A stretch of DNA of 64,000 nt from Candidatus Latescibacterota bacterium (GCA_965248265.1 CBDFJF010000002.1:1-64000), one strand, 5' to 3'; positions 13,447-46,738 are shown, counted from the first letter of the stretch. The notes: generated by a model from the sequence alone, not told the origin. Translations and numbers: made by a program.

Positions 13447-14418
13447 ATGAACGGTCTCAGCGAGACTCAGGCGGACCAGTACGCCAGGAAGGGATTCGTC
13501 ATGGTCCCCGACGTGTTTGATCCCGCCGATCTACAACCTCTGCGAGATGAGTTGACGGACGTCATTCACTCCTGTGCCATCGAGCTAAAGGCCGCGGGCA
13601 AGATCAGTAGTCTTTACGAGGACGAGCCGTTCGAGCGTCGCCTCACCAGGATCATGGCTGAATCAGAGGAGGTCATGCACGCCCTAACCGGCAAGGGGGG
13701 AGGCGGCCACAGCGGCAAGGCGTTTTTCGAACTCATCACCCACGAAAAGTTGCTAACCAGGATAGAATCGTTGGTCGGCCCCGAGATCGTGGGCTCCTCG
13801 GTCTATCGCATTCGCGCCAAGGTCCCCGGTTATGACAGGGGGGTGGTACCATGGCATCAGGACTCGGGGTACTTCAACCCGTTCTGCGATGACAAGCTGA
13901 TCGTCACTTGCTGGATTCCCCTCGTCGACACGACACCGGAGAACGGCTGCCTGCAGGTGTTGCCGTACTGCCGGTCCGACGGAGTAGTCGAGCACCATCG
14001 TGGCGGCCCCAACGGGTACCTGGCTATCAAGGATGAGAATCTGCCGGCCGGAGAAGCCGTCACCGTGCCGATGCCTGCAGGCGGGGTGTTGTTCATGACC
14101 AACTGCACTCCGCACATGTCGACGGCGCACCAGGTTGATATGGTGCGCTGGGCCATCGACGTGCGTTATCAATCCGCACAGCTGCCGAACAATGTAGACG
14201 AACCTCCGGAACGCTACGACGCCACCTTGCCACTGAGCGAGATGGCCTGCTACCCTCCAGAGGCGGATTTCGTGATCAAGAGTCCCGAGAATCCGGATTC
14301 TGAGATCTCGAATTGGGAAAAATTCCAGGAGATTCGCCAGAGTTATCAGGACCAACGACCGAGTTTCAAGGGCAGAGGTTGGGAAACCTGGGAAGCGCTT
14401 GACGGCGTGGCCGGGTAA
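13447..14418 (+). CDS. Phytanoyl-CoA dioxygenase (PhyH) family protein
   Basis: PWHQDSGY, WIPLVDTTPENGCL and the distal His in TPH. Confidence 0.9.
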   Translation: MNGLSETQADQYARKGFVMVPDVFDPADLQPLRDELTDVIHSCAIELKAAGKISSLYEDEPFERRLTRIMAESEEVMHALTGKGGGGHSGKAFFELITHEKLLTRIESLVGPEIVGSSVYRIRAKVPGYDRGVVPWHQDSGYFNPFCDDKLIVTCWIPLVDTTPENGCLQVLPYCRSDGVVEHHRGGPNGYLAIKDENLPAGEAVTVPMPAGGVLFMTNCTPHMSTAHQVDMVRWAIDVRYQSAQLPNNVDEPPERYDATLPLSEMACYPPEADFVIKSPENPDSEISNWEKFQEIRQSYQDQRPSFKGRGWETWEALDGVAG

Positions 14419-14460
14419 ACTCACAGACACCACATGGCAATCAAAGAGGAGCGTTTTTCG

Positions 14461-14958
14461 ATGATACGGAGAGCTATTCTGTTGGCGCTGGCATGCTCAT
14501 TGGCCGTATTGGTTGGCGTCGCTGGTTGTTCCGGAGACGGCACCACCCTGGGCCCATCCGGGACACCAGATACCGCGATGAACGGCGACAACGGTGACAA
14601 TGGGGAAAACGGTGACAATGGCGACAATGGTGACAACGGTGACCCCACGGTGACCCTGGCGACGTTGAGCGCGGAGATATTCACCCCCAACTGTGCCGTC
14701 AGCGGCTGCCACGCAGGGCCCAACGCCTCCAATGGGATGTCGCTGGAGGCCAGTGTGATCGCAGATGAGATTATCGGCATAACCAGCACACGGGATGGAT
14801 CTACCCTGCGCATCGCCCCCGGCGATCCGGATAACTCGCTCATTGTACAGAAGGTGCGTGGTGAAGCAGGGAGTCGGATGCCGCTGAGCGCACCGGCACT
14901 GTCGGCGGAAGCGATCGCCAAGCTTGTCGAATGGATCGAAGCCGGTGCCAATCCCTAG
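14461..14958 (+). CDS. Lipoprotein with cytochrome c-like domain (CxxxxCH)
   Basis: Lipobox VAGC, CAVSGCH, PGDPDNSLI, RMP (Met ligand) and WIEAGA. Confidence 0.7.
   Translation: MIRRAILLALACSLAVLVGVAGCSGDGTTLGPSGTPDTAMNGDNGDNGENGDNGDNGDNGDPTVTLATLSAEIFTPNCAVSGCHAGPNASNGMSLEASVIADEIIGITSTRDGSTLRIAPGDPDNSLIVQKVRGEAGSRMPLSAPALSAEAIAKLVEWIEAGANP
14581..14643 (+). repeat. Seven 9-nt tandem repeats encoding (NGD/E)7
   Basis: aacggcgac aacggtgac aatggggaa aacggtgac aatggcgac aatggtgac aacggtgac. Confidence 0.9.
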
Positions 14959-15003
14959 CCACCACGAAGACCACCACAGAATCAGCAGTACCAGGAGAAT
15001 ACG

Positions 15004-16158
15004 ATGACGACGACAGTCGAGTCCGCCGTGCGCGAACGCTACAGTGAGGCGGCAAAGGCACCGGAAGCAGCACTGTGCTGCCCCGTCCAGTACAATCCGC
15101 AATATCTGAAGATCATCCCGGAAGAGATCATCGAGAAGGATTACGGTTGCGGCGATCCTTCCCAGCATGTGGGCTCCGGAGAGGTCGTCGTAGACCTGGG
15201 CTCGGGTGGCGGTAAGAGCTGTTTCATCGCCTCGCAGATCGTCGGTGCCGAGGGCAAGGTCATTGGCGTGGACATGAACGATGAGATGCTCGCATTGGCC
15301 CGCAAGTACCAACCGGAGATCATCGCACAAGTCGGCTATGACAACGTCGAGTTCCGGAAGGGACGCATCCAGGACTTGAGTCTGGATCGCGATCTCTTAG
15401 ATGTCTGGCTGCGGGACAATCCGGTCACGGACGAGTCATCGCTGCGGCTGATGGAAGAAACGGTTTCCAGATTTAGGCAGGATCAGCCGCTGGTGGCCGA
15501 TGACTCGGTTGACGTCGTCATCAGCAACTGTGTCCTCAACCTGGTTTCTGATGACGAGAAAAAGGAATTGTTCGGCGAGGTGTTCCGGGTGCTGCGGCGC
15601 GGTGGCCGGGCGGCTATCAGCGACATCGTCGCCGACGAGCCCGTCCCGCAGGAACTCAAGGACGATCCTGAACTGTGGAGTGGCTGCGTCTCTGGCGCCA
15701 TGCAGGAAGAGGAGTTTCTCAAGGCCTTCGAGAGCGCCGGCTTTTATGGCATCGAAATAACGAAGCGGGATGAGCAACCCTGGCGCGTGGTTGGGGGCAT
15801 CGAGTTCCGCGCCGTCACCGTTGTCGCCTACAAGGGCAAGGAAGGCGCGTGCTGGGATCACAACGAAGCCCTCATCTATCGTGGCCCCTTCAAGTCGGTG
15901 AGCGATGACGATGGACACACCTTCGTGCGCGGTCAGCGTGTCGCCGTGTGCCGGAAGACGAGGGCAATCTTCTCCCGCGCCCCGTACAGCGACTACTTCG
16001 AGGTCGTGGAGCCTCTAAACGCGGTTACCGAGCCGGAGCCGTTCCCCTGCGACAGCGGCACTCTGCTGCGCCATCCGCGGCAGACGAAGGGGGAGGATTA
16101 CGGTCTGACGACGGAAGCGGGTGCGTGTTGCGAACCGGAAGAGGGAGCGTGTTGCTAG
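15004..16158 (+). CDS. arsM: Arsenite S-adenosylmethionine methyltransferase (ArsM/AS3MT-like)
   Basis: LCCP, YGCGDP, DLGSGGG, ISNCVLNL and WSGCVSGA conserved Cys motifs; Cys-pair C-terminus CCEPEEGACC. Confidence 0.75.
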   Translation: MTTTVESAVRERYSEAAKAPEAALCCPVQYNPQYLKIIPEEIIEKDYGCGDPSQHVGSGEVVVDLGSGGGKSCFIASQIVGAEGKVIGVDMNDEMLALARKYQPEIIAQVGYDNVEFRKGRIQDLSLDRDLLDVWLRDNPVTDESSLRLMEETVSRFRQDQPLVADDSVDVVISNCVLNLVSDDEKKELFGEVFRVLRRGGRAAISDIVADEPVPQELKDDPELWSGCVSGAMQEEEFLKAFESAGFYGIEITKRDEQPWRVVGGIEFRAVTVVAYKGKEGACWDHNEALIYRGPFKSVSDDDGHTFVRGQRVAVCRKTRAIFSRAPYSDYFEVVEPLNAVTEPEPFPCDSGTLLRHPRQTKGEDYGLTTEAGACCEPEEGACC

Positions 16159-36041: not shown

Positions 36042-36890
36042 ATGAATTACGGTCAGGCAGGCTGGGGCAAGACCAATCGGATGGCCCAGGTATTTAGACC
36101 CGACAACAAAGGCAACGTGCACACGGTCATGCTGGCCGTTGATCATCCGTACTTTTACGGCCCCACTACGGGACTGGAAGATCCCCGTGAAACCATCCGG
36201 CCGCTGGTGCCCTATGCCGACGCCATCTCACCGGCCAAGGGCAGTCTGGTGTTTTCGCTGGACCCGCTGGTGCCGACGCCCGTTATCCTGCGCGTCACCG
36301 GCGGCAACAGCATGACGCGGCGGGAAGAGCTCTCAAACGAGCACATCATTACATCCGTAGAAGAAGCCGTCAAACTGAATGCCGTTGGCGTCTCGGTGTC
36401 CGTCTACATCGACACCGAGCACCAGTCGCAGACCCTGCGCAGCCTGGGCGCCCTGGCCAATGAAGCCAGCAAGTACGACCTGCTCGTTCTCGGTATCACC
36501 GCCGTCGGCGCCAAACTGGAGCCGATGGTCAAGGGGGAAGGGGAGGGGAGCGCCGATTTCGATGCGGCCCGCTACTTCGCCCACGCCGGCCGCATCATCC
36601 AGGAGAACGGCGCCGACATCGTCAAGACCTATTTCGTCGACGGCTGGGACGAAGTCCGCAATGGCATTCAGGCGCCAATCGTCATTGCCGGTGGCAAGAA
36701 GGTGCCCGAAAAAGAAGCCCTCGAGTTCACGTCGCAGGCCATCCAGGCCGGTGCCGACGGGGTCGACATGGGTCGCAATATCTTCCAGTCAGAGAATCCG
36801 GTGGCCATGATTCAGGCCGTGCGCTCGGTTGTGCACCAGGGCAATACACCGGAGCAAGGACTCGAGTTGTTCGAGAGCTTGCGGAGTTAA
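36042..36890 (+). CDS. lsrF: LsrF-like class I aldolase/thiolase
   Basis: MLAVDH, GADIVKTY, VIAGGKK and GVDMGRNIFQS motifs. Confidence 0.8.
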   Translation: MNYGQAGWGKTNRMAQVFRPDNKGNVHTVMLAVDHPYFYGPTTGLEDPRETIRPLVPYADAISPAKGSLVFSLDPLVPTPVILRVTGGNSMTRREELSNEHIITSVEEAVKLNAVGVSVSVYIDTEHQSQTLRSLGALANEASKYDLLVLGITAVGAKLEPMVKGEGEGSADFDAARYFAHAGRIIQENGADIVKTYFVDGWDEVRNGIQAPIVIAGGKKVPEKEALEFTSQAIQAGADGVDMGRNIFQSENPVAMIQAVRSVVHQGNTPEQGLELFESLRS

Positions 36891-36895
36891 CCTGC

Positions 36896-37924
36896 GTGAA
36901 AGTCGGCGTCTACCATAACAACAGCGACGTACGCCTGGAGGAGCGAGCCACTCCCGAAGTAGGTCCTGGCGATCTGTTGATGGAAGTGAAGGCGAGCGGA
37001 ATCTGCGGCAGCGACATCATGGAGTGGTACCGCATAAAGCGCGCCCCCCTCATCCTCGGCCACGAAGTAACCGGCGACATCGTCGAGGTCGGGGAGGGAG
37101 TGGAGGGATTCTCGGTCGGCGATCGCATCTTCTCCACGCATCATGTACCCTGCTACGAGTGCCGCGATTGCCTCAATGGGTATCACACCGCTTGCGAGGT
37201 TTTCCACGGCGAGAACAATTTCGACCCGGGTGGCTTCGCCCAGTTCCTGCGCATCAGCGGGCGATCTGTTCCCATGGGCACGATGCGGCTGCCGGACGAG
37301 GTGTCGTACGACGCCGGCTCCTTCATCGAGCCGCTGGGCACGGTCGTGCGCGGTCAGCGTGAGATTGGCATCACCCCCGGAGAGACCGTGCTGTTATTGG
37401 GCAGTGGTCTGATCGGCCTGCTGCAGATCAAGCTGATGCGTGCCCTCGGTGTCGGCCGCATAATCGCTACCGACATCCAGGACTACCGACTACAACAAGC
37501 CACCCGCGTCGGCGCCGACCATGTCTGCAATGCAGCTGGGGATGTGGCCGCGTTCGTGCGCGAAGTCAACGGCGGCCGCCTGGCCGACAAGGTCATCGTC
37601 AGCACGGGAGCGTTATCGGCTGCACAGACGGGGCTGCAGTGCGTGGAAAAAGGAGGCACCGTCCTGTTCTTCGCCGTACCCAAACCGGACGAAGAGCTCA
37701 ACATCGACATCAACGCCTTCTGGCGGGACTCCAAGAGCGTCAAAGTCAGCTACGGCGCTGCGCCCATCGACAATCAACAGGCCCTTGATCTGATTCGTAC
37801 CGGCCGGGTCGAGGTCGAGGACATGATTACACACCGCCTGCCTCTGGACGACATCGGCGAGGGCTTTCGCCTTACCTGCGACGGGACGAACAGTCTCAAG
37901 GTCATCATCGAGCCGAATCGATAG
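36896..37924 (+). CDS. Zn-dependent alcohol/polyol dehydrogenase
   Basis: GICGSD, GHE, CYECRDC...C and GSGLIG motifs. Confidence 0.92.
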   Translation: MKVGVYHNNSDVRLEERATPEVGPGDLLMEVKASGICGSDIMEWYRIKRAPLILGHEVTGDIVEVGEGVEGFSVGDRIFSTHHVPCYECRDCLNGYHTACEVFHGENNFDPGGFAQFLRISGRSVPMGTMRLPDEVSYDAGSFIEPLGTVVRGQREIGITPGETVLLLGSGLIGLLQIKLMRALGVGRIIATDIQDYRLQQATRVGADHVCNAAGDVAAFVREVNGGRLADKVIVSTGALSAAQTGLQCVEKGGTVLFFAVPKPDEELNIDINAFWRDSKSVKVSYGAAPIDNQQALDLIRTGRVEVEDMITHRLPLDDIGEGFRLTCDGTNSLKVIIEPNR

Positions 37925-38461: not shown

Positions 38462-39709
38462 TCAAGCTCGAAATACGTCTCCGATGATCTGTACACCAAC
38501 CTCATCACCCGCCTCCGCTCGCTGTCCCGGCTCAAGCACGACCACTCCGTTGGCCCCAAGCATGGAAGTCAGGATATGCGAGCCCTGAGCCCGGTAAGCG
38601 GTGTCCGCCATCAACTGATCGCCATCCCAATCAAGGCGGGCGCGCTGGTACTCCCGGCGATCACCGCCGTTGCCGACCGGGTGACGCATACGAGCGCGCG
38701 CTGTCGGCAACAGCCAGTCGCTCTCCGCAAACCCGGAGGCCTTGCGCACGGCCGGTCGTACGAACTGAAGGAACGACATCAGGCTTGAGACGGGATTTCC
38801 CGGCAGGCCGAAGAATGGCTTGCCGCGCAGCAGGCAGAAGAACAGGGGTTTGCCCGGTTTCATGGCGACCCGCCACAGCACCTGCTCGGCTTCCATCTCT
38901 TTGAGGATGTCTTTGATGAAGTCGTACTCGCCGACGGAGACGCCGCCGGAAGAAAGGACGAAATCGCTGCCCAATGCCATTTCGATGGTGCGACGGATCT
39001 GGTCCTCGTTGTCTGGGGCGGTGGGCAGCATGACCGGTACTCCGCCGTGCGCCAGCACCATGGCAGCCAGGCTGGCGGTGTTGCTGTTGACGATCTTGCC
39101 CGGCTCCAGGGGCTCATCGATTTCTACCAGTTCATCGCCCGTCGAGAGAATAGCGACGGTCGGTTGGCGGTACACGGGCACAAAGGTTCGTTGTAGCGAG
39201 GCCAGGACACCGACTTCGCCAGCAGTCAAAACGGTGCCGGCAGGCATCAGGACTTCCCCCGTGCGCATATCCTCGCCGCTACGGCGTATATGGGTGCCCT
39301 TTTCTTCAGGCACCATGATGTCGACACTCGACTTCTCTGTGGCCTTGGTGTCCTCGACCTTGATAACCGTGTCGATGCCGGCAGGTATGGGCGCGCCGGT
39401 CATGACGCGACTGGCCTGCCCCGGTCCGACCTCTTTCTTTCCGATGTAGCCAGCGGGGATTTCTTCGATGACCTCAAGGCTCACCGGATTCTCCGCCGAC
39501 GCGCCGGCAATGTCGTCGAAACGGACGGCATAGCCATCCATGGCGGAGTTGTCGTGCGGCGGGTTGTCGTAGGTCGCCTTTTCGTCGCGGGCGAGCACAC
39601 GGTTCAGGGCGTCCAGTAGGGACACCCGCTCGACACCGAGGACGTTGATCCGCGCCAGTACCAGTTGCTGCGCTCGTTCCGGAGTGGTCACTGCATTCGA
39701 GTCAGTCAT
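38462..39709 (-). CDS. moeA: Molybdopterin molybdotransferase
   Basis: NSAMDGYA, MTGAPIP, STGDEL, SGGVSVG, MKPGKP and GLPGNPVS motifs. Confidence 0.95.
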   Translation of the reverse strand: MTDSNAVTTPERAQQLVLARINVLGVERVSLLDALNRVLARDEKATYDNPPHDNSAMDGYAVRFDDIAGASAENPVSLEVIEEIPAGYIGKKEVGPGQASRVMTGAPIPAGIDTVIKVEDTKATEKSSVDIMVPEEKGTHIRRSGEDMRTGEVLMPAGTVLTAGEVGVLASLQRTFVPVYRQPTVAILSTGDELVEIDEPLEPGKIVNSNTASLAAMVLAHGGVPVMLPTAPDNEDQIRRTIEMALGSDFVLSSGGVSVGEYDFIKDILKEMEAEQVLWRVAMKPGKPLFFCLLRGKPFFGLPGNPVSSLMSFLQFVRPAVRKASGFAESDWLLPTARARMRHPVGNGGDRREYQRARLDWDGDQLMADTAYRAQGSHILTSMLGANGVVVLEPGQRAEAGDEVGVQIIGDVFRA

Positions 39710-39713
39710 GGAT

Positions 39714-41012
39714 ATGAAAATACCGAGTGATCGAGGCCAGACAAGGCGGCGGGGACGCCTGATGCTCATCCTGCCAGCATCAACCTACAATACGATTGAG
39801 TTCATGACCGCGGCTGGGAAGTTGGATGTTGATATCGTCGTCGGTTCGGATCGGGGGCAGGTGTTGGAGTCGCAATTGCCGGCCGGATTGCTGCAATTGG
39901 ACTTCGACGCGCCCGATCACGCGACCCAACAGATTCGCGACTATGCAGCGCAATGGCCCCTGGATGCGGTGATTGGCGTTGACGACCACACGGCGCTGCT
40001 GGCCTCTGTGGCCAGTGAGGCGCTCGGGATTCCGCACAACGCGGCCGACGCCGTGCGCGCTGCCGGCAACAAGCTGCTGATGCGCCGGAAACTGGCTCAG
40101 TCGGAATTGCCCAAGCCGGGGTTCGAGGTCGCGGACTTGAGTGCGGATGTCGCTGAGATCGCCGCCCGCGTGTCGTATCCGTGCGTGCTCAAGCCGTTGT
40201 TTTTGGCGGCCAGTCGCGGGGTCATTCGGGTCGATGACGCGGTGCAGTTCGATGCTGCCTTCCAGCGCATTCGCAGTCTGCTTACCCAGCCGAAGATCAC
40301 CCGCAGGGGCGGCGAGGCAGCGCAGTTCATTCTGATCGAAGATTTCGTGCCCGGAATCGAGGTAGCCGTTGAGGGTTTGCTCACTGATGGCCGGCTGCGG
40401 GTTCTGGCTGTGTTCGACAAGCCGGATCCACTGGAAGGGCCTTATTTTGCAGAAACTATTTACGTGACTCCTTCCAGGCTCGACGACCAGGTACAATCTC
40501 GGGTGGCGGCGCATGTCGAAAAGGCAGCTGCGGCCCTCGGCCTTCGCGAGGGCCCGGTCCATGCCGAGTTGCGGCTGGGCAGTCGTTCTGAATCGGATGA
40601 TATCTTTGTCATCGAGATTGCCGCGCGCTCCATCGGCGGCTTGTGCTCGCGGGTTCTCGAATTCGGCGCCGGTATATCGCTGGAAGAGCTGGTCCTGCGC
40701 CACGCACTGGGGTTGCCCGTGGACGCGCTCGAGCGCACGGGTGTTGCAGGCGGGGTGATGATGCTGCCGGTCCCGGTGCGTGGGCGGTTGTGTGGGGTGG
40801 ATGGGATTGACGCCGCCGGCATGGTCCCCGGTATCGAGGAGATCCTCATTACTATTCCAGCTGGGAAAGAGGTTTTCCCATTGCCCGAGGGGGATCGCTA
40901 CCTGGGATTTCTCTTCGCCAAAGGGGATTCTCCTGCTGGCGTCGAGGCCTCGCTACGGGAGGCGTACGGGAAGCTGCACGTCGTGATAGAAGCTGAGGAG
41001 GAGATGGAGTGA
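39714..41012 (+). CDS. ATP-grasp ligase (L-amino-acid-ligase-like)
   Basis: NKLLMR, YPCVLKP..ASRGV, IEDFVPG.E and EIAAR motifs; start uncertain (39708, 39714 or later). Confidence 0.88.
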   Translation: MKIPSDRGQTRRRGRLMLILPASTYNTIEFMTAAGKLDVDIVVGSDRGQVLESQLPAGLLQLDFDAPDHATQQIRDYAAQWPLDAVIGVDDHTALLASVASEALGIPHNAADAVRAAGNKLLMRRKLAQSELPKPGFEVADLSADVAEIAARVSYPCVLKPLFLAASRGVIRVDDAVQFDAAFQRIRSLLTQPKITRRGGEAAQFILIEDFVPGIEVAVEGLLTDGRLRVLAVFDKPDPLEGPYFAETIYVTPSRLDDQVQSRVAAHVEKAAAALGLREGPVHAELRLGSRSESDDIFVIEIAARSIGGLCSRVLEFGAGISLEELVLRHALGLPVDALERTGVAGGVMMLPVPVRGRLCGVDGIDAAGMVPGIEEILITIPAGKEVFPLPEGDRYLGFLFAKGDSPAGVEASLREAYGKLHVVIEAEEEME

Positions 41013-42376
41013 ACGAGGGTCAACCGAAAGCAGTCGGCGCCACCCTGACGGAGGGTCCTGTCGCGCGCGTGCTGGCCGGGCTGGCGGGGCCGATGGTCAT
41101 CGGCATGTTTTCCGTCGTCGCCTTTAACCTGACGGACACCTACTTCGTGGCTAGGCTCGGTACCCGTGAGCTGGCCGCCATCAGTTTCACGTTTCCAGTC
41201 GTCTCCGTCATGTTCGGTATTGCCATGGGCCTGGGTACCGGGACGATTTCGGTGGTGTCGCGGGCCATCGGCAGCGGCGACCAGGACAGGGTGCGGCGGA
41301 TCTCCTCTGACAGTCTGATGCTCTCATTGCTGACTGTGCTGGCGGCAGCGGCCATCGGTATGCTGACGATCGATCCATTGTTCCGGGCATTGGGCGCCGG
41401 CGACGACGTGCTGCCTCTGATACGTCAGTACATGACCATCTGGTATCCGGGTATGGTGTTCCTGGTCATGCCGATGGTGGCCAATGCATCGATCAGGGCT
41501 TCCGGCGACACCAAACTGCCGGCGTTCATCATGACGTCCGGCACCCTCGTCAACATGGTGCTGGATCCGCTGTTGATCTTCGGCCTGTGGGGCTTTCCCC
41601 GATGGGAGTTGAAGGGGGCGGCTGTCGCTACCGTGATAGCTCGCGTGCTGATTTTGATAGCGTCGTTGACGATCCTCCACTTCCACAAGAGGATGCTTGA
41701 CTTCAGGCCGCCGGGCCTGCGTCAACTGCTGGATTCGTGGCGCCAGATTACCACCCTGGCCATCGCCGCCTCAGCCACCAACATGATGCCTTCGGTTGCC
41801 GTGGCCTTCGTAACCAGGCTCATCGCCGAATTCGGTGCCGGCGCCGTGGCCGCCTGGGGCGCCGGTTCCCGGGTGTCGCACTTCGTGCTGATTCCGGTGT
41901 ACGCTCTGGGCTCGGGTCTGGTGCCGTTCGTGGGTCAGAACTGGGGAGCTGAGCGCTACGACCGGGTGCGCCTGGCACGGCGTTACGCTTACCGCTTCGT
42001 CTTTCTGTGGGGAGCCGCCATGGTCGTCCTCCTGCACCTGGGTGCGGAGTCGATCGCCGTGCATTTCAGTACTGACGCCGAGGTGGTCAACAACATCGTG
42101 CGGTACTTGTGGATCGTCCCCCTCGGGTTCGGCATGATGGGGGTCTTCTTCATGACCGAGGAAACCCTCAATGCGATCGGACGGCCGGCTGTCGCCACGC
42201 TCACGACAGCCATTCACATGTTCCTCCTCTACGCACCCCTGGCCTACATGGGGACCCGGTGGTGGCAGATGACCGGGCTGTTCTTCGGCGTCGCTGGCGC
42301 CGACATCCTCGCCGGATTCGTCGGTGTCATCACCGTGCACCGGCTGTGTCGCGAGCGGGAGGCGACCTGCATCTGA
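41009..42376 (+). CDS. MATE family efflux transporter
   Basis: DTYFVARLG, GDTKLP, LDPLLIFG and GQNWGA motifs; GTGA overlap with the ATP-grasp gene. Confidence 0.92.
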   Translation: MNEGQPKAVGATLTEGPVARVLAGLAGPMVIGMFSVVAFNLTDTYFVARLGTRELAAISFTFPVVSVMFGIAMGLGTGTISVVSRAIGSGDQDRVRRISSDSLMLSLLTVLAAAAIGMLTIDPLFRALGAGDDVLPLIRQYMTIWYPGMVFLVMPMVANASIRASGDTKLPAFIMTSGTLVNMVLDPLLIFGLWGFPRWELKGAAVATVIARVLILIASLTILHFHKRMLDFRPPGLRQLLDSWRQITTLAIAASATNMMPSVAVAFVTRLIAEFGAGAVAAWGAGSRVSHFVLIPVYALGSGLVPFVGQNWGAERYDRVRLARRYAYRFVFLWGAAMVVLLHLGAESIAVHFSTDAEVVNNIVRYLWIVPLGFGMMGVFFMTEETLNAIGRPAVATLTTAIHMFLLYAPLAYMGTRWWQMTGLFFGVAGADILAGFVGVITVHRLCREREATCI

Positions 42377-42392
42377 ACTCACACCTCGCAGT

Positions 42393-43886
42393 TCATACAA
42401 TGTTGGCAAGAGCAAACTGCTCTTCAGTGGGTTCCGCTCAGCAGTACCACGGTTCCGTCAGGTAGGGAATCGTCGCAGGCACCGGTACATCGTCGATGTA
42501 GCGCGGCGTTTGCAGTCCGAGGGCCTCGTGTGCCAGGGTCCAGATGGCACCGAAGACCTGGCGCCGTGTTGCTGGAGTTCCCTGGTCCTGACAGACGGCT
42601 ACGCAGACGCGTTCGAAGAGGGTGTCCACGTGCGGGTCGGGATGCATCCACGGATAGCCGAGCTCTTCCGCCTCGAACGGTTGGAGGAAGGCGCGGACAT
42701 GCTCCAGCTCGAGCAGGCGTGACCCTTGTGGAACCAGCAGCCGGATGGCCAGCTGCACCGGGGCGACCTGGTCGACGAGGTCCAGCTCGGCCAGCAACTG
42801 CAGCAGCTCCAGGTAGGATGATGGAGTCGTCCACGGCGTAAAGGAGATGAAGGTCGGGTTCAGTACCAAACCCGTGTCCCTGCACAACTGCGCCACGCGG
42901 ACGAAGTCCTCGCGCGTATGTCCCTTGTCAAGGATTCGCAGGACCTCGTCGTCGACGGACTCGACCGCAGAGGTGACGAAGGCGCAGCCGGTTTCGTGCA
43001 GCGCTGACAGGCGGTCATGGTGTTTCAACAAATGCTCGATCTTGATGGTGACGTCGTAGGAGACATCAGGAAATTCGGCATGGAGCTGCTCGACGAGGGC
43101 GAGTCCATGCCCGACGCCATTGAAGAAGTCCGGGTCCCCGAATGTCACGTGGCGTGCCCCAGCCTCGATTTGTTGACGTATATCATCGAGGACGACGTCG
43201 CGCTGGACGACGCGAAAACGGCCGTCATAGACGGGCACGACCGGACAATGCCGGCACCGGTGCTTGCAACCGCGACTGGCCTCGACGTAACCGACGGTCC
43301 GGGTTTTGTCTCCGACGACCAGTTGAGCGTACTCGTGCAGTTGGGGCAGGTCGCTACGGTCGGGGAGCAGAAACTGCTGCTTCTCAATCCAGGTTGAGGT
43401 GATGCCGGCGTGCTCGGCAGTGGCAGGAGACGCCAACCGTTGGCACAGCGCCAGCAGCTCGGTTTCGAATTCGCCTGCCAACAGCGTCTCCACACCCAAT
43501 GCCCTCAAATGACTCGTGTTGACGACCGCGTAGAGACCGAAGGCGCAGATGTGGGCCGTCGGATTGAGCTCGCGGACTTGCCTGATGAGTGGTAGAGCCA
43601 GTCGCGTGGCCGTGTGCATGGGCAGATAGAAACCGATTACGTCGGCGTCCGCGGCCGTGTGCTCTGGCAGTTCGCCTACGGCAAGGTCGACGCAGTTGAC
43701 CTGATGATGCGCGCGGCGCAACCAGGCCGCCGGAGAAGCGAGCCCGAAGGGCTGCCGACCGAGCTCGTAAGTGGAGATCAGGAGGACGTGGAGAGGTCGA
43801 TGGACCTCGAAGGGCAAGGCGATGCTGCTACGGAGACTTGGACTGCTGGTAGTAGGGATTGTCCCCATCGGCATGGTCCGTGACAT
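42393..43886 (-). CDS. CUAEP-tail radical SAM selenoprotein (Sec at UGA 42438-42440)
   Basis: CKHRCRHC radical SAM motif and a B12-binding-like N-domain. TGG TAC TGC TGA GCG GAA CCC reads W-Y-C-U-A-E-P, open to TGA 42393. Start uncertain (TTG 43817 possible). Confidence 0.88.
42408..42424 (-). promoter_or_regulatory. Putative bacterial SECIS hairpin
   Basis: AAGAGCA-GUU-UGCUCUU; the loop G is 21 nt after the UGA. Confidence 0.7.
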
Positions 43887-44415
43887 CGTAGATCTCTTCG
43901 ATTTCCGGTACCGCTTCCTTGATCATCACCTCGATGCCCTGCTTGAGAGTGACGTCGGCCATGCCGCAACCCTGGCATCCTCCGCCCAGCTGCAGGTAGA
44001 CGGCATTGTCCTTGACATCGATCAGGGACACATGGCCCCCGTGCGAGGCCACGGCCGGGTTGATGCGCTCTTCGATAACCTGCCGGATCTTGTCGACGAC
44101 GGGTCCGGAGATATTGGGTGGGGTCACGCCCGGGCGTTCGACCTTGAAACCGCTACCCATGAGGCCGTCAACGTAATCGACGTTGGCTTCCTCCGCGTTC
44201 GGCAGGCTGTCCGCATCGATATAGACGTTGAAGCCCTCGAACTCGATAACGGTGTCATCGCTGGTGTCCTGATCGTGGGCGATAAAGGCCATCTTGAAGT
44301 CGACCTTTAGAGGCGACACGGCCGTGGCACCCAGGCGAAGCCCCTTGACCTTGGTCTCACTCGAGTCGATCAACTCGATGATCTTTTCGCGGGCTGCTTC
44401 CGTTATCGTGACCAT
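43828..44415 (-). CDS. nfuA: Fe-S biogenesis protein NfuA-like
   Basis: Degenerate A-type N-domain plus NifU C-domain INPAVASHGG...GGGCQGC. Confidence 0.88.
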   Translation of the reverse strand: MVTITEAAREKIIELIDSSETKVKGLRLGATAVSPLKVDFKMAFIAHDQDTSDDTVIEFEGFNVYIDADSLPNAEEANVDYVDGLMGSGFKVERPGVTPPNISGPVVDKIRQVIEERINPAVASHGGHVSLIDVKDNAVYLQLGGGCQGCGMADVTLKQGIEVMIKEAVPEIEEIYDVTDHADGDNPYYQQSKSP

Positions 44416-44557: not shown

Positions 44558-46738
44558 TTGGAAAGACGACAGATCACTATCCGTTTGGCCCTGGCAGCAT
44601 CAGGACTGTTGCTGGCAATTGGTGCGGCCGAATTCGCGCTCAGACTCATGGCCGGGTCTGCGGTCGTCCCAGGTGATGCTGCGGTTGAGGCGGCGGTCCC
44701 CACGGATGCCGGTGCTGGCATCATGCATCGGGAAGGGCTGGATGGCACCGGTCTGGGGTGGGTTCCAAGGCCGGGAATCGTGCGCCAGAAATCCGCACCC
44801 GACGGCGATCTCTTCACGATGCGGATCAACTCCAGAGGTATGCGGGGTCCCGAACTGGAGCAGCGACGATCCGGTCATCGGCGGATCCTTTTTCTGGGTG
44901 ACTCCTTCACCATGGCCGGGCAATTGCCGGAAGAGGATACCTTCGTCCATCGGGTCGGCGACCTGCTGCGCATGGATCCTGGGGTCGATGTCGAAGTCGT
45001 CAACGCCGGCATCAATGGCTACAGCACCTACCAGGAAATGGCCCTCTACAAGCGTCACCGGCGAGCACTGCTCCCGGATACTGTTGTCCTGTGTTTCTTC
45101 CTGGGCAACGATTTCCGCGACAACATGGTGCATACTTCCGAAGCGCGTCGTCTGCGAAGAGAGCTTTTGCCTCGAGGGATGCGCTACTTCGACCGCCATC
45201 GGGACCGGTTTCTCTACGGCATCGATGGGGTTCGTCTCACCGATCCACTGTCCGGTCAGCTGCTGCGGGAGCCTTCGCGGTCGTGGCTGGTCTCCCTGAC
45301 GCAGCATTCCTCGCTGGCTCGTCTCCTGATCGCGCGGGTTGCTCTGATTCAGGGACGAATGAGTTCCGACCTGGATCTGCTCGACTCAAATCATCGGTAT
45401 TATTTCTATGAAATCGGTCTGTATCAACAGAAACAAGACGGGCTGTACCAGACGGCGACCGAGATTACCCTGGATTGCATTGACGAACTGGACGTGGCCG
45501 TGAGGGCGGATGGTGGAGAGCTGCTGGTGGCGTTGATCCCCTCACAAAGCCAGGTGGTTCCCGACTACTGGCGCCACACGCTGGATCAACTCGGGCTGGA
45601 GGAGTCGGATTTGGGTTCAGTCGATATGCGTTTCCCCAATCGCCTGCTCACTGAGTTTCTGGATAAGCGGTCGATTCCCGTCGTCGATATGACCGATGAC
45701 TTCGTCAATGCGACCGGTCCCAAAACACTATTTCTAGCAAACGAGGGGGATCGCCATTTCAGCGCCCAGGGACACCGGGTGGCGGCAACGGCGATCGCGA
45801 CGTTGGTGCGCGATCACAGTGCCCGACTGCGGGATCCTGCCGTGGACATGCGCAATCAGGCCAACGCCCTTGTCGCGGCTGGAGATTTTGAGGCCGGCGA
45901 AGAGCTTCTGAAAAACGCGATCGAAGTTTCGCAGGGTTGGCACGCGCCGTACCAGGATCTTGCCGCCGTCTATAGCCGGCTGGGTGCATTGGAAAGAAGC
46001 GTCGCCATGCTGACTGCGGCCGACCGGCTGTCGCCACTGGATCCCGAGTGGTTGCGGAACCTGGCACGTCTGCATCTGGCCATAGGCGACACGGCTCAGG
46101 CCATGGCCCGGTACGATCGCGTGCTGGAACGTGATCCGTCTCATTCGGTGCGTGGCGAGCTCAAACACCTATACAGGGCACTGCGGCAACCGCAAAAGGC
46201 TCGGTTGCTGGATGAAGAGCACGCAAGACTGCAGGCACGAGAGGTCAATCTGCGCCGCAGCCAGGTCGAGCGCACCGCACGAGATCCAATGGCCCACTTC
46301 GCGCACGGCAATTCCCTCGAGACCGCTGGCGACCTGCCCGGTGCTCGCCAGGCTTACGAAAGAGCGCTGGCATTGCGACCGGATTTCGCCGAGGCCGGCG
46401 TCAACCTTGGAGCACTATATGTAGGCGAAGGCCGCCTGGATGAGGCCGCTACGGCGTTCCAGAACGCACTGGAGGCAGACCCGAGCCGGGTGGAAGCGAT
46501 GAACAACCTCGGACTCATCTATCGTGAATGGGGCCGTCTTGAGGAGGCTCGCGAGCTCTACCTGAAGGTGCTAGGACTGCGGCCCAATCTGGCTCAAGCC
46601 CACTTCAACCTGGCTCTCGTCTACCGTGGGTTGGGGCTCAAGGACAAGGCCATCGAGCATTTGACCAAGGCGGTCCGCCTGGATCCGGGGATCAAGGAGC
46701 TGTATGACTTCTCGGCGAAGCCCGCGGGCCGGGACTAG
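44558..46738 (+). CDS. SGNH/GDSL hydrolase fused to TPR repeats
   Basis: INSRGMRG, LGDSFT, NAGINGY, GND and DRHFS motifs, then multiple TPRs; N-terminal TM anchor. Confidence 0.85.
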   Translation: MERRQITIRLALAASGLLLAIGAAEFALRLMAGSAVVPGDAAVEAAVPTDAGAGIMHREGLDGTGLGWVPRPGIVRQKSAPDGDLFTMRINSRGMRGPELEQRRSGHRRILFLGDSFTMAGQLPEEDTFVHRVGDLLRMDPGVDVEVVNAGINGYSTYQEMALYKRHRRALLPDTVVLCFFLGNDFRDNMVHTSEARRLRRELLPRGMRYFDRHRDRFLYGIDGVRLTDPLSGQLLREPSRSWLVSLTQHSSLARLLIARVALIQGRMSSDLDLLDSNHRYYFYEIGLYQQKQDGLYQTATEITLDCIDELDVAVRADGGELLVALIPSQSQVVPDYWRHTLDQLGLEESDLGSVDMRFPNRLLTEFLDKRSIPVVDMTDDFVNATGPKTLFLANEGDRHFSAQGHRVAATAIATLVRDHSARLRDPAVDMRNQANALVAAGDFEAGEELLKNAIEVSQGWHAPYQDLAAVYSRLGALERSVAMLTAADRLSPLDPEWLRNLARLHLAIGDTAQAMARYDRVLERDPSHSVRGELKHLYRALRQPQKARLLDEEHARLQAREVNLRRSQVERTARDPMAHFAHGNSLETAGDLPGARQAYERALALRPDFAEAGVNLGALYVGEGRLDEAATAFQNALEADPSRVEAMNNLGLIYREWGRLEEARELYLKVLGLRPNLAQAHFNLALVYRGLGLKDKAIEHLTKAVRLDPGIKELYDFSAKPAGRD

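Follow-up and report, generated by a model that had tools for sequence, protein, structure and literature searches.

A 64,000-nt stretch of Candidatus Latescibacterota bacterium (GCA_965248265.1 CBDFJF010000002.1:1-64000; hereafter the window, i.e., the whole stretch at its full length) carries, at 38462-44415, five genes that raise the question of what a radical S-adenosylmethionine (SAM) selenoprotein, an ATP-grasp ligase, a MATE efflux pump and an NfuA-like iron-sulfur carrier could be making together, with a moeA gene at their side. A sequence-only reading of this locus had answered with an organo-arsenic (or other metalloid) compound, assembled on a Cys-Sec (selenocysteine) tail, joined to an amino acid and exported as a Trojan-horse peptide. 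We consider it rather to be one lineage's version of a widely conserved module, composed of a CUAEP/CCAEP-tail radical SAM enzyme, an L-amino-acid ligase and an iron or iron-sulfur helper, in which ArsL-like chemistry would lead to a dipeptide, a reading to which we give a probability of roughly 0.45. The product of the module is probably an amino-acid-derived compound of some kind. The features of the locus are as follows (window coordinates).

38462-39769, minus strand: moeA, all three MoeA Pfam domains, head-to-head with the ligase gene
39762-41012, plus strand: ATP-grasp ligase of L-amino-acid-ligase (LAL) type, Pfam ATPgrasp_N, ATP-grasp_4 and LAL_C2
41009-42376, plus strand: MATE efflux pump, TIGR00797 208.2 bits (cut-off 147.4)
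42393-43886 (longest open reading frame, ORF), minus strand: CUAEP-tail radical SAM selenoprotein, NF040546 628.8 bits (cut-off 500)
42438-42440, minus strand: in-frame TGA, predicted to be read as selenocysteine (U483), frame kept beyond the codon in relatives, Sec machinery in the genome
42408-42424, minus strand: hairpin resembling a selenocysteine insertion sequence (SECIS), 7-bp stem AAGAGCA/UGCUCUU, loop GUU, beginning 16 nt past the UGA
43828-44415, minus strand: NfuA-like Fe-S carrier, Pfam Fe-S_biosyn 44.6 bits and NifU 87.8 bits

A predicted selenoprotein related to ArsL

Translated with table 11, the radical SAM ORF stops at the TGA at 42440-42438, and reading through it with Sec gives ...EPWYC-U-AEPTEEQFALANIV, up to the TGA at 42395-42393. 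Candidate starts are ATG at 43886, 43874 or 43868 and TTG at 43817, conservation beginning at residue 34. The match to NF040546 spans model positions 1-467 of 468, the core motif CxxxCxxC is C207/C211/C214 (CKHRCRHC) and the tail pair is C482-U483; in score, tail motif and Sec site the protein differs in nothing from this catalogued family, and the genome holds one copy of its gene. A collection scan returned 561 relatives, and the locus counts given below refer to the 80 best loci among them. The tail W[YF]C[U/C][A/S]EP is in frame in the window and in all 80 related loci, the codon at the Sec site being TGA in 56 (including L077, where the contig end falls within the tail motif) and TGC or TGT, i.e., cysteine, in 24. 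A hairpin stem of at least 5 bp, 15-16 nt past this codon, is found in 51/56 TGA forms versus 5/24 Cys forms, and it comes with 28 different arm pairs, compensatory changes between the arms and G-U-containing loops (AGUUG, AGUU, GGU); the sequences compared are related, so that a Fisher p-value overstates the case. Besides selA (560.9 bits), selB (332.8 bits) and selD (352.2 bits), the genome has a tRNA-Sec. Because the frame of the tail is conserved, the hairpin keeps a fixed position in TGA forms and the decoding machinery is present, the TGA is, as far as sequence can tell, decoded as selenocysteine, and the Sec radical SAM enzyme with a Cys-Sec tail that had been recognized at the outset stands. 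Sec and Cys have been exchanged at least seven times on the quick tree of the family described below. The selD gene itself (G000:C2:1010876-1011799, outside the window) contains an in-frame TGA, and the selenophosphate synthetase of this genome is probably a selenoprotein as well. Where the Haft 2022 preprint names the NF040546 family, it terms it "uncharacterized" (10.1101/2022.07.06.499078). Our literature search, with supplements outside its reach, found the CUAEP/CCAEP family named once, in those terms, and its function described nowhere.

The second-best match of the window enzyme is the ArsL model NF040542, with 299.3 bits over positions 1-407 of 423 (under the cut-off of 450), and a true ArsL (from genome G845) scores 337.9 bits on the CUAEP model and ca. 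682.5-682.9 bits on its own. Both share an N-terminal B12-like domain, the CxxxCxxC core and a flexible tail with vicinal cysteines, and an ArsL-type protein aligns with the family end to end, its vicinal CC falling on the CC/CU column. By these comparisons the window enzyme is a true ArsL paralogue over its whole length, with its Cys-Sec pair aligned with the vicinal Cys-Cys of the ArsL tail, and ArsL is its nearest characterised relative, which bears out the kinship suggested earlier. Very few canonical radical SAM enzymes other than ArsL are known to cleave SAM at the "wrong" bond. Two reports on its mechanism describe three tail cysteines binding As(III), an iron-carbon species formed with the aminocarboxypropyl group and a tail required for C-As bond formation, not for SAM cleavage (10.1101/2024.02.01.577332; 10.64898/2026.04.29.721666), the second stating that all three tail cysteines are needed (10.64898/2026.04.29.721666).

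The family differs from ArsL in that the CUAEP tail continues for 10-40 further residues after AEP (the ArsL tail being RCCLKC), in its helper, i.e., NfuA or YggX instead of the CobW-type GTPase of ArsL islands, in a partner ligase of a different subfamily and in being without arsM, arsQ, arsN or other ars context. For enzymes of both kinds, an ATP-grasp ligase and a helper for metal or cluster are frequent partners, and the CUAEP family is by far the more widespread, a search of representatives having returned 560 proteins at E<=1e-30. Among the best 150 of these, which we inspected, nearly every full-length protein has W[YF]C[C/U]AEP or stops at the Sec site, a few have an unrelated C-terminal sequence, and P0116 (36% identical) is the only one with an ArsL-type ...KRCCIKC end; a metagenome scan with the latter gave matches of only 21-26% identity. 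In a quick tree of 61 family representatives, one ArsL-type sequence and three outgroups, the ArsL-type row forms a long branch joining the outgroups, which does not separate an ArsL that is sister to the family from one nested within it. Adjacent Cys-Cys or Cys-Sec pairs also occur in the C-terminal tails of MerA (vicinal Cys-Cys) and thioredoxin reductase (Gly-Cys-Sec-Gly), mobile arms that bring in a metal ion or reducing equivalents; as their folds and chemistry are unrelated to those of the CUAEP enzymes, the likeness is one of resemblance only.

A dedicated ATP-grasp ligase

The ligase ORF of the window is open from 39645, with alternative starts at 39708 and 39714, and its three Pfam domains all score above the Pfam cut-offs (ATPgrasp_N 36.9, ATP-grasp_4 113.5 and LAL_C2 55.6 bits). 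Linkage was assessed by tblastn of the window proteins against the 80 related loci. In 51 of them, spread over many phyla, the ligase is a neighbour of the radical SAM gene, either downstream and co-directional (39), upstream (4) or convergent (8), the last being the arrangement of the window, and of 14 genomes whose locus is without it, 10 have a high-scoring orthologue elsewhere. A replacement partner in the ligase-free loci was considered and rejected, their neighbours being heterogeneous (glutamate-synthase-like, methyltransferase, oxidoreductase, integrase, deacetylase and amidohydrolase genes among others).

The same pairing is seen at the level of genomes. The radical SAM family is above its cut-off in 33 of 168 species genomes of the window's phylum, all with one TGA, and a profile built from 18 partner ligases (A1) scores 380.9-635.5 bits in exactly those 33 (in G009 the match comes in two pieces, 380.9 and 192.6 bits) and at most 190 bits in the other 135. 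Within this phylum the ligase is found in the 1.5-kb flanks of the enzyme in 25/29 loci, and three of the 33 module genomes have the two genes on separate contigs or at a distance of 1.3 Mb. A 401-genome sample of a second phylum (that of locus L007) has 70 genomes with both genes, 2 with the enzyme only, 8 with the ligase only (one of these being the unpublished genome G205) and 321 with neither; where both occur, they lie within 5 kb (42 genomes), within 5-35 kb (4) or elsewhere (24). Because joint presence and joint absence persist even where the genes are unlinked, enzyme and ligase are, to judge by these genomes, a co-inherited functional pair, and the ligase proposed as a partner from the window can be taken as such.

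The closest solved relative of the partner ligase is 3VOT (BL00235), which matches the partner-ligase profile end to end with 235.6 bits. We know of no radical SAM partner of BL00235; it and BacD have the three-domain ATP-grasp architecture in common with the partner ligase, and the similarity is distant. Table 2 of PMC6920838 gives Met-Gly and Met-Met as products of BL00235, which therefore activates a 2-amino-4-X-butanoate. Among plasmid records, no partner-type ligase was matched at E<=1e-60.

NfuA or YggX as iron helper

The NfuA-like protein of the window scores 154.3 bits on TIGR03341, under the cut-off of 269, and is built of a Cys-less A-type domain and an Nfu domain with CxxC (GGGCQGCG). 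Its gene lies directly upstream of the radical SAM gene and in the same direction, tblastn of the genome found no second full-length copy, and an nfuA occupies the position directly upstream of the enzyme in 29/29 loci examined in the window's phylum, which upholds its earlier listing as a member. In other phyla the helper is a different protein. NfuA was detected by tblastn in 13/80 related loci, and the small ORF beside many ligases is YggX, an Fe(2+)-trafficking/oxidative-damage protection protein (PF04362 118-121 bits; NF003817 123 bits), present in 37/80. Over 81 loci, i.e., the 80 relatives and the window, the genes combine as follows.

Ligase and YggX: 35/81
Ligase and NfuA: 13/81
Ligase alone: 4/81, two of them at contig ends
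YggX alone: 2/81
NfuA alone: 1/81
None of the three: 26/81, many on short contigs

One of the two helpers is thus present in 48/52 linked enzyme-ligase pairs, and both together in none. Where the ligase is unlinked from the enzyme, YggX (three loci) or NfuA (one locus) is its sole conserved neighbour (L119, L121-L123).

ArsL islands as a contrast

A search of 401 genomes of one order found one true ArsL (G845; locus L148, on G845:C62), besides 44 sub-cut-off cross-matches, one of them in the unpublished genome G608, and among 68 genomes of the family of G845 no other has ArsL. Its locus holds, on one strand, an LAL-type ATP-grasp, a weakly ArsM-like protein, an MFS transporter, ArsM (NF040539, 352.8 bits) and ArsL. 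With this ArsL as query, 37 plasmid records were retrieved, 36 with an ArsL/RCCLKC tail (annotated as such or near-identical to annotated ones) and one, from Thermomicrobium roseum, with a CUAEP/CCAEP tail. The 36 records are highly redundant (about five lineages), and 35 have an island ATP-grasp within ca. 5 kb on the same plasmid, the sole record without one being the arsQ-arsL-arsM plasmid of Pseudomonas amygdali. ArsL islands carry an overlooked ligase; our literature search found no paper linking arsL clusters to an ATP-grasp ligase, with the reservation that supplements, which may list cluster genes, were outside it. This suggests that compounds of the arsinothricin type may occur in dipeptide form. 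Other frequent members of these islands are an MFS pump, ArsM, a CMD-family protein and a CobW-type GTPase (G845, L150-L153 and the plasmid records).

In overall design, the cassettes of Alicyclobacillus pAACI01, Pantoea pSUH1_C, Bacillus cereus pBFR_2, Priestia p9 and G845 resemble the CUAEP module, with an ArsL-type enzyme, an LAL-type ligase, a pump and a metal helper. Unlike the module, they belong to arsenic-resistance islands that are plasmid-borne or flanked by IS elements: all six inspected ArsL-type loci are in such islands (ArsR, ACR3 or ArsB, ArsC, aquaporin, ArsN1), four of them with a CobW-type (metal-chaperone) GTPase. The island ligases of G845, B. cereus and Pantoea are 35-39% identical to one another but only 21-30% to the window type, and score 83-143 bits on the A1 profile, versus 610-647 for true partners; the analogy between the two kinds of ligase is one of design and not of orthology. 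The earlier proposal that the ligase acts on the amino-acid product of the enzyme gains an analogy from the island ATP-grasp, accompanied by an MFS pump, of 35/36 plasmid records and G845.

Searching 123 module loci (1.6 Mb) with 18 arsenic-island proteins, including ArsR, ACR3, ArsB, ArsC, ArsD, ArsH, ArsI, ArsN1, ArsQ, ArsM and aquaporin, gave three weak matches (among them an ArsR-like stretch of L007 and an L022 methyltransferase). Arsenic genes are not associated with the CUAEP module. The window itself does hold a gene that had been read as ArsM-type, some 27 kb from the locus.

15004-16158, plus strand: ArsM-like gene, 26-27 kb from the module, NF040538 351.7 bits (cut-off 500), PRK11873 216.7 bits (cut-off 263)

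Its presence is confirmed, and, being below both cut-offs, it is classed as ArsM-like and not as a curated ArsM. Relatives of it occur in 7/168 genomes of the phylum, of which three are among the 33 with the module and four among the 135 without, and family f3, whose 22 genomes all carry the module, has none; the tie to the module that had been suspected is lost. No ars resistance genes were identified among ten ORFs scanned around it (8.6-19.3 kb of the window), and the ORF before it (region 13447-16158) shows weak similarity to the methylphosphonate hydroxylase PhnY* (48.6 bits, far under the cut-off).

A proposed pathway and its rivals

We propose that the enzyme, like ArsL, would use SAM as a donor of a 3-amino-3-carboxypropyl group to a soft atom held on the C-terminal Cys-Sec pair, that the product would be a 2-amino-4-X-butanoate and that the ligase would join this to a second amino acid to give a dipeptide; these steps are put forward because of the homology with ArsL and the parallel design of ArsL islands. 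NfuA or YggX would keep the 4Fe-4S cluster of the enzyme charged, since iron-carbon chemistry of the ArsL type may make this cluster labile, and the CobW-type GTPases of ArsL islands may likewise service a cluster that such chemistry may damage. In this genome and in one sister genus, the MATE coupled to the ligase would export the product. Arsenic is an improbable acceptor atom for the module. The genomic context hints weakly at sulfur, selenium or iron-sulfur metabolism, and an acceptor that is a non-arsenic soft atom on the Cys-Sec tail (either the sulfur or selenium of a persulfide-like adduct or a metal(loid) other than arsenic), with a new class of 2-amino-4-X-butanoates made into dipeptides, is a tentative idea that we would sooner doubt than assert. 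If the proposal holds, the pathway would be a common one in soil bacteria, in need of constant cluster repair by NfuA or YggX. In two soil phyla, roughly one sampled genome in five has a member of what appears to be the much larger sister family of ArsL, and an orphan cluster becomes a defined system open to expression and testing, i.e., a radical SAM enzyme, a specific ligase and an iron helper, without a tie to arsenic genes.

Several points weigh against this proposal. As far as sequence tells, SAM might be cleaved either to the aminocarboxypropyl group or to 5'-deoxyadenosyl. The C-U-AEP tail of the window offers two soft ligands, the RCCLKC tail of ArsL three, and C301, the candidate for a third tail ligand (kept in 80/81 close relatives), was rejected as a universal one, being lost in the ArsL-type representative and in about eight divergent members. 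The window-type ligase is only 21-30% identical to those of ArsL islands. No partner ligase was found in 4 of the 14 genomes with a ligase-free locus (L009, L013, L017, L076) or in 2 of the 72 enzyme-bearing genomes of the second phylum, assemblies that may be incomplete, and the co-occurrence counts come from kin genomes that are not independent, so that no test across them is exact. Lastly, the candidate ORFs found up to 2 kb from the module (237, reduced to 148 non-redundant neighbours, one per cluster) include no recurrent exporter, resistance gene or regulator among the 25 commonest of their 181 Pfam families.

The locus might still make and export an arsinothricin-like organoarsenical peptide, with As(III) on the Cys-Sec tail, transfer of the aminocarboxypropyl group to it, methylation by the ArsM-like protein, ligation and export by the MATE. 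ArsL is the closest characterised relative and its tail aligns with the vicinal CC/CU of the family, real ArsL islands hold an ATP-grasp ligase and a pump, an ArsM-like gene does lie in the window and the MATE is coupled to the ligase both here and in the sister genus (G101); against this, the ArsM-like gene is distributed without regard to the module (3/33 versus 4/135, and 0/22 in f3), three weak arsenic-island matches in 123 module loci compare with 6/6 ArsL-type loci in arsenic islands, the MATE is present in 0/80 related loci, and the tail is without the third cysteine that ArsL needs. Moreover, the pair in Acidobacteriota is surrounded by genes for aconitase, glucose-6-phosphate dehydrogenase, glucokinase, a phosphoglucose-isomerase-like gene, a HAD hydrolase and Lgt, housekeeping surroundings in which a Trojan-horse antibiotic peptide is a poor fit. 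Of the neighbours whose co-occurrence the sequence-only reading had looked to, i.e., ATP-grasp, MATE and arsM, only the first recurs with the enzyme, nothing in the gene content around the module speaks for the arsenic role it had assigned to the locus, and we consider an organoarsenical product unlikely.

A different use of the same proteins would be iron-sulfur or redox homeostasis, the module making a thiol, selenol or metal-binding molecule or carrying out repair, with 5'-deoxyadenosyl chemistry and the tail as a redox or H-atom-donating arm, much as the Cys-Sec tail of thioredoxin reductase is a redox arm. The constant presence of NfuA or YggX, one of which accompanies the ligase even where the latter is separated from the radical SAM gene (L119, L121-L123), the housekeeping surroundings, the occurrence of Rrf2 regulators and class-V aminotransferases (two each among the 148 non-redundant neighbours) and the seven or more Sec/Cys exchanges on the quick tree, common for redox-active residues, would all suit such a role. 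Yet the helpers may merely service a labile cluster, the only characterised relative, ArsL, holds its substrate with the tail, and the ligase is of the free-amino-acid type, so that we view this alternative as doubtful, if worth keeping in sight. The pair might also modify a protein or RNA. In diphthamide synthesis, Dph2 adds an aminocarboxypropyl group and the ATP-dependent Dph6 then amidates, i.e., the same chemical order of aminocarboxypropyl transfer followed by an ATP-dependent amide bond, and the want of recurrent exporter, resistance or regulator genes would agree with it; the three-domain architecture of free L-amino-acid ligases, with the end-to-end BL00235 match, and the lack of a conserved candidate target gene nearby make it a rather improbable explanation. 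Finally, a chance gene order of independent genes would account for moeA, MATE and ArsM, which are unrelated or lineage-specific, but it is contradicted for the enzyme and ligase, which co-occur across two phyla and are paired even in genomes where they are unlinked; for the locus as a whole it is scarcely credible. We thus return to the conserved module with ArsL-like chemistry as the preferred reading, and turn to the genes that surround it.

Neighbours outside the core

The arrangement of the locus is as it had been described from the window: a ligase-MATE operon converges on an nfuA-radical SAM operon with exactly 16 nt (42377-42392) between the stops of the MATE and radical SAM genes, the earlier figure having been about 16, the GTG start of the MATE overlaps the ligase stop by 4 nt (GTGA), and moeA is head-to-head with the ligase gene. 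What did not survive comparison is the membership of MATE and moeA. Like the MATE, moeA was matched in none of the 80 related loci by tblastn, and their linkage to the module is common only to the window and the sister genus G101, where a MATE and a MoeA, each 66% identical, stand in the same order, the MATE behind the ligase; in four other module genomes of the window's family the ligase converges directly on the enzyme. Judged by this distribution, the MATE is a lineage-specific add-on and not a core member, and moeA, MATE and ArsM (the last without co-occurrence) were rejected as members of the core. The locus of G101 is itself rearranged, with a BNR-repeat gene inserted between the MATE and the enzyme, and has a DDE_3 transposase directly upstream of nfuA (L129:2481-3902).

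More generally, no Pfam family occurs in more than four of the 148 non-redundant neighbours, and arsenic, MATE and MFS families are absent from the 25 commonest. In the window, the module is flanked on one side (36042-37924) by an LsrF-type 3-hydroxy-5-phosphonooxypentane-2,4-dione thiolase (302.3 bits, cut-off 297) and, after it, a zinc alcohol dehydrogenase, the two of which may form a sugar or autoinducer-2-type catabolic pair, and on the other (44558-46738) by a gene divergent from nfuA for a protein of 726 residues, GDSL/SGNH hydrolase-like in its N-terminal part and with TPR repeats towards the C-terminus, which is not conserved beside the module (one weak match in the 80 loci).

A neighbour of another kind is DUF169 (COG2043), found in eight loci, six of the 80 and two of the window's phylum (L010, L013, L017, L026, L050, L069, L089, L091). 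It lies just downstream of the enzyme in seven of these and ca. 3.7 kb away in L017, and four cysteines are invariant across the eight copies. In L013 (9643-13903), from a Terriglobia genome where the search gave no partner ligase, three genes follow that of the CUAEP enzyme in the same direction, for DUF169, CpaM (NF043040, 253.9 bits) and an HgcAB-like fusion (NF043039, 329.2 bits), the last two scoring above their cut-offs. A figure legend of bioRxiv 10.1101/648329 lists DUF169 beside the HgcA-like genes of Nitrospina. Should the proposed pathway be correct, DUF169, linked as it is both to the enzyme and to corrinoid cassettes of the HgcA-like type, would connect the module with a wider organometal(loid) biochemistry. 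An annotated CCAEP-tail radical SAM gene is also carried by a cultured strain, on the megaplasmid of T. roseum DSM 5159 (L154, 796591-798027), with a pyridoxal phosphate (PLP) aminotransferase on one side and an MFS transporter on the other.

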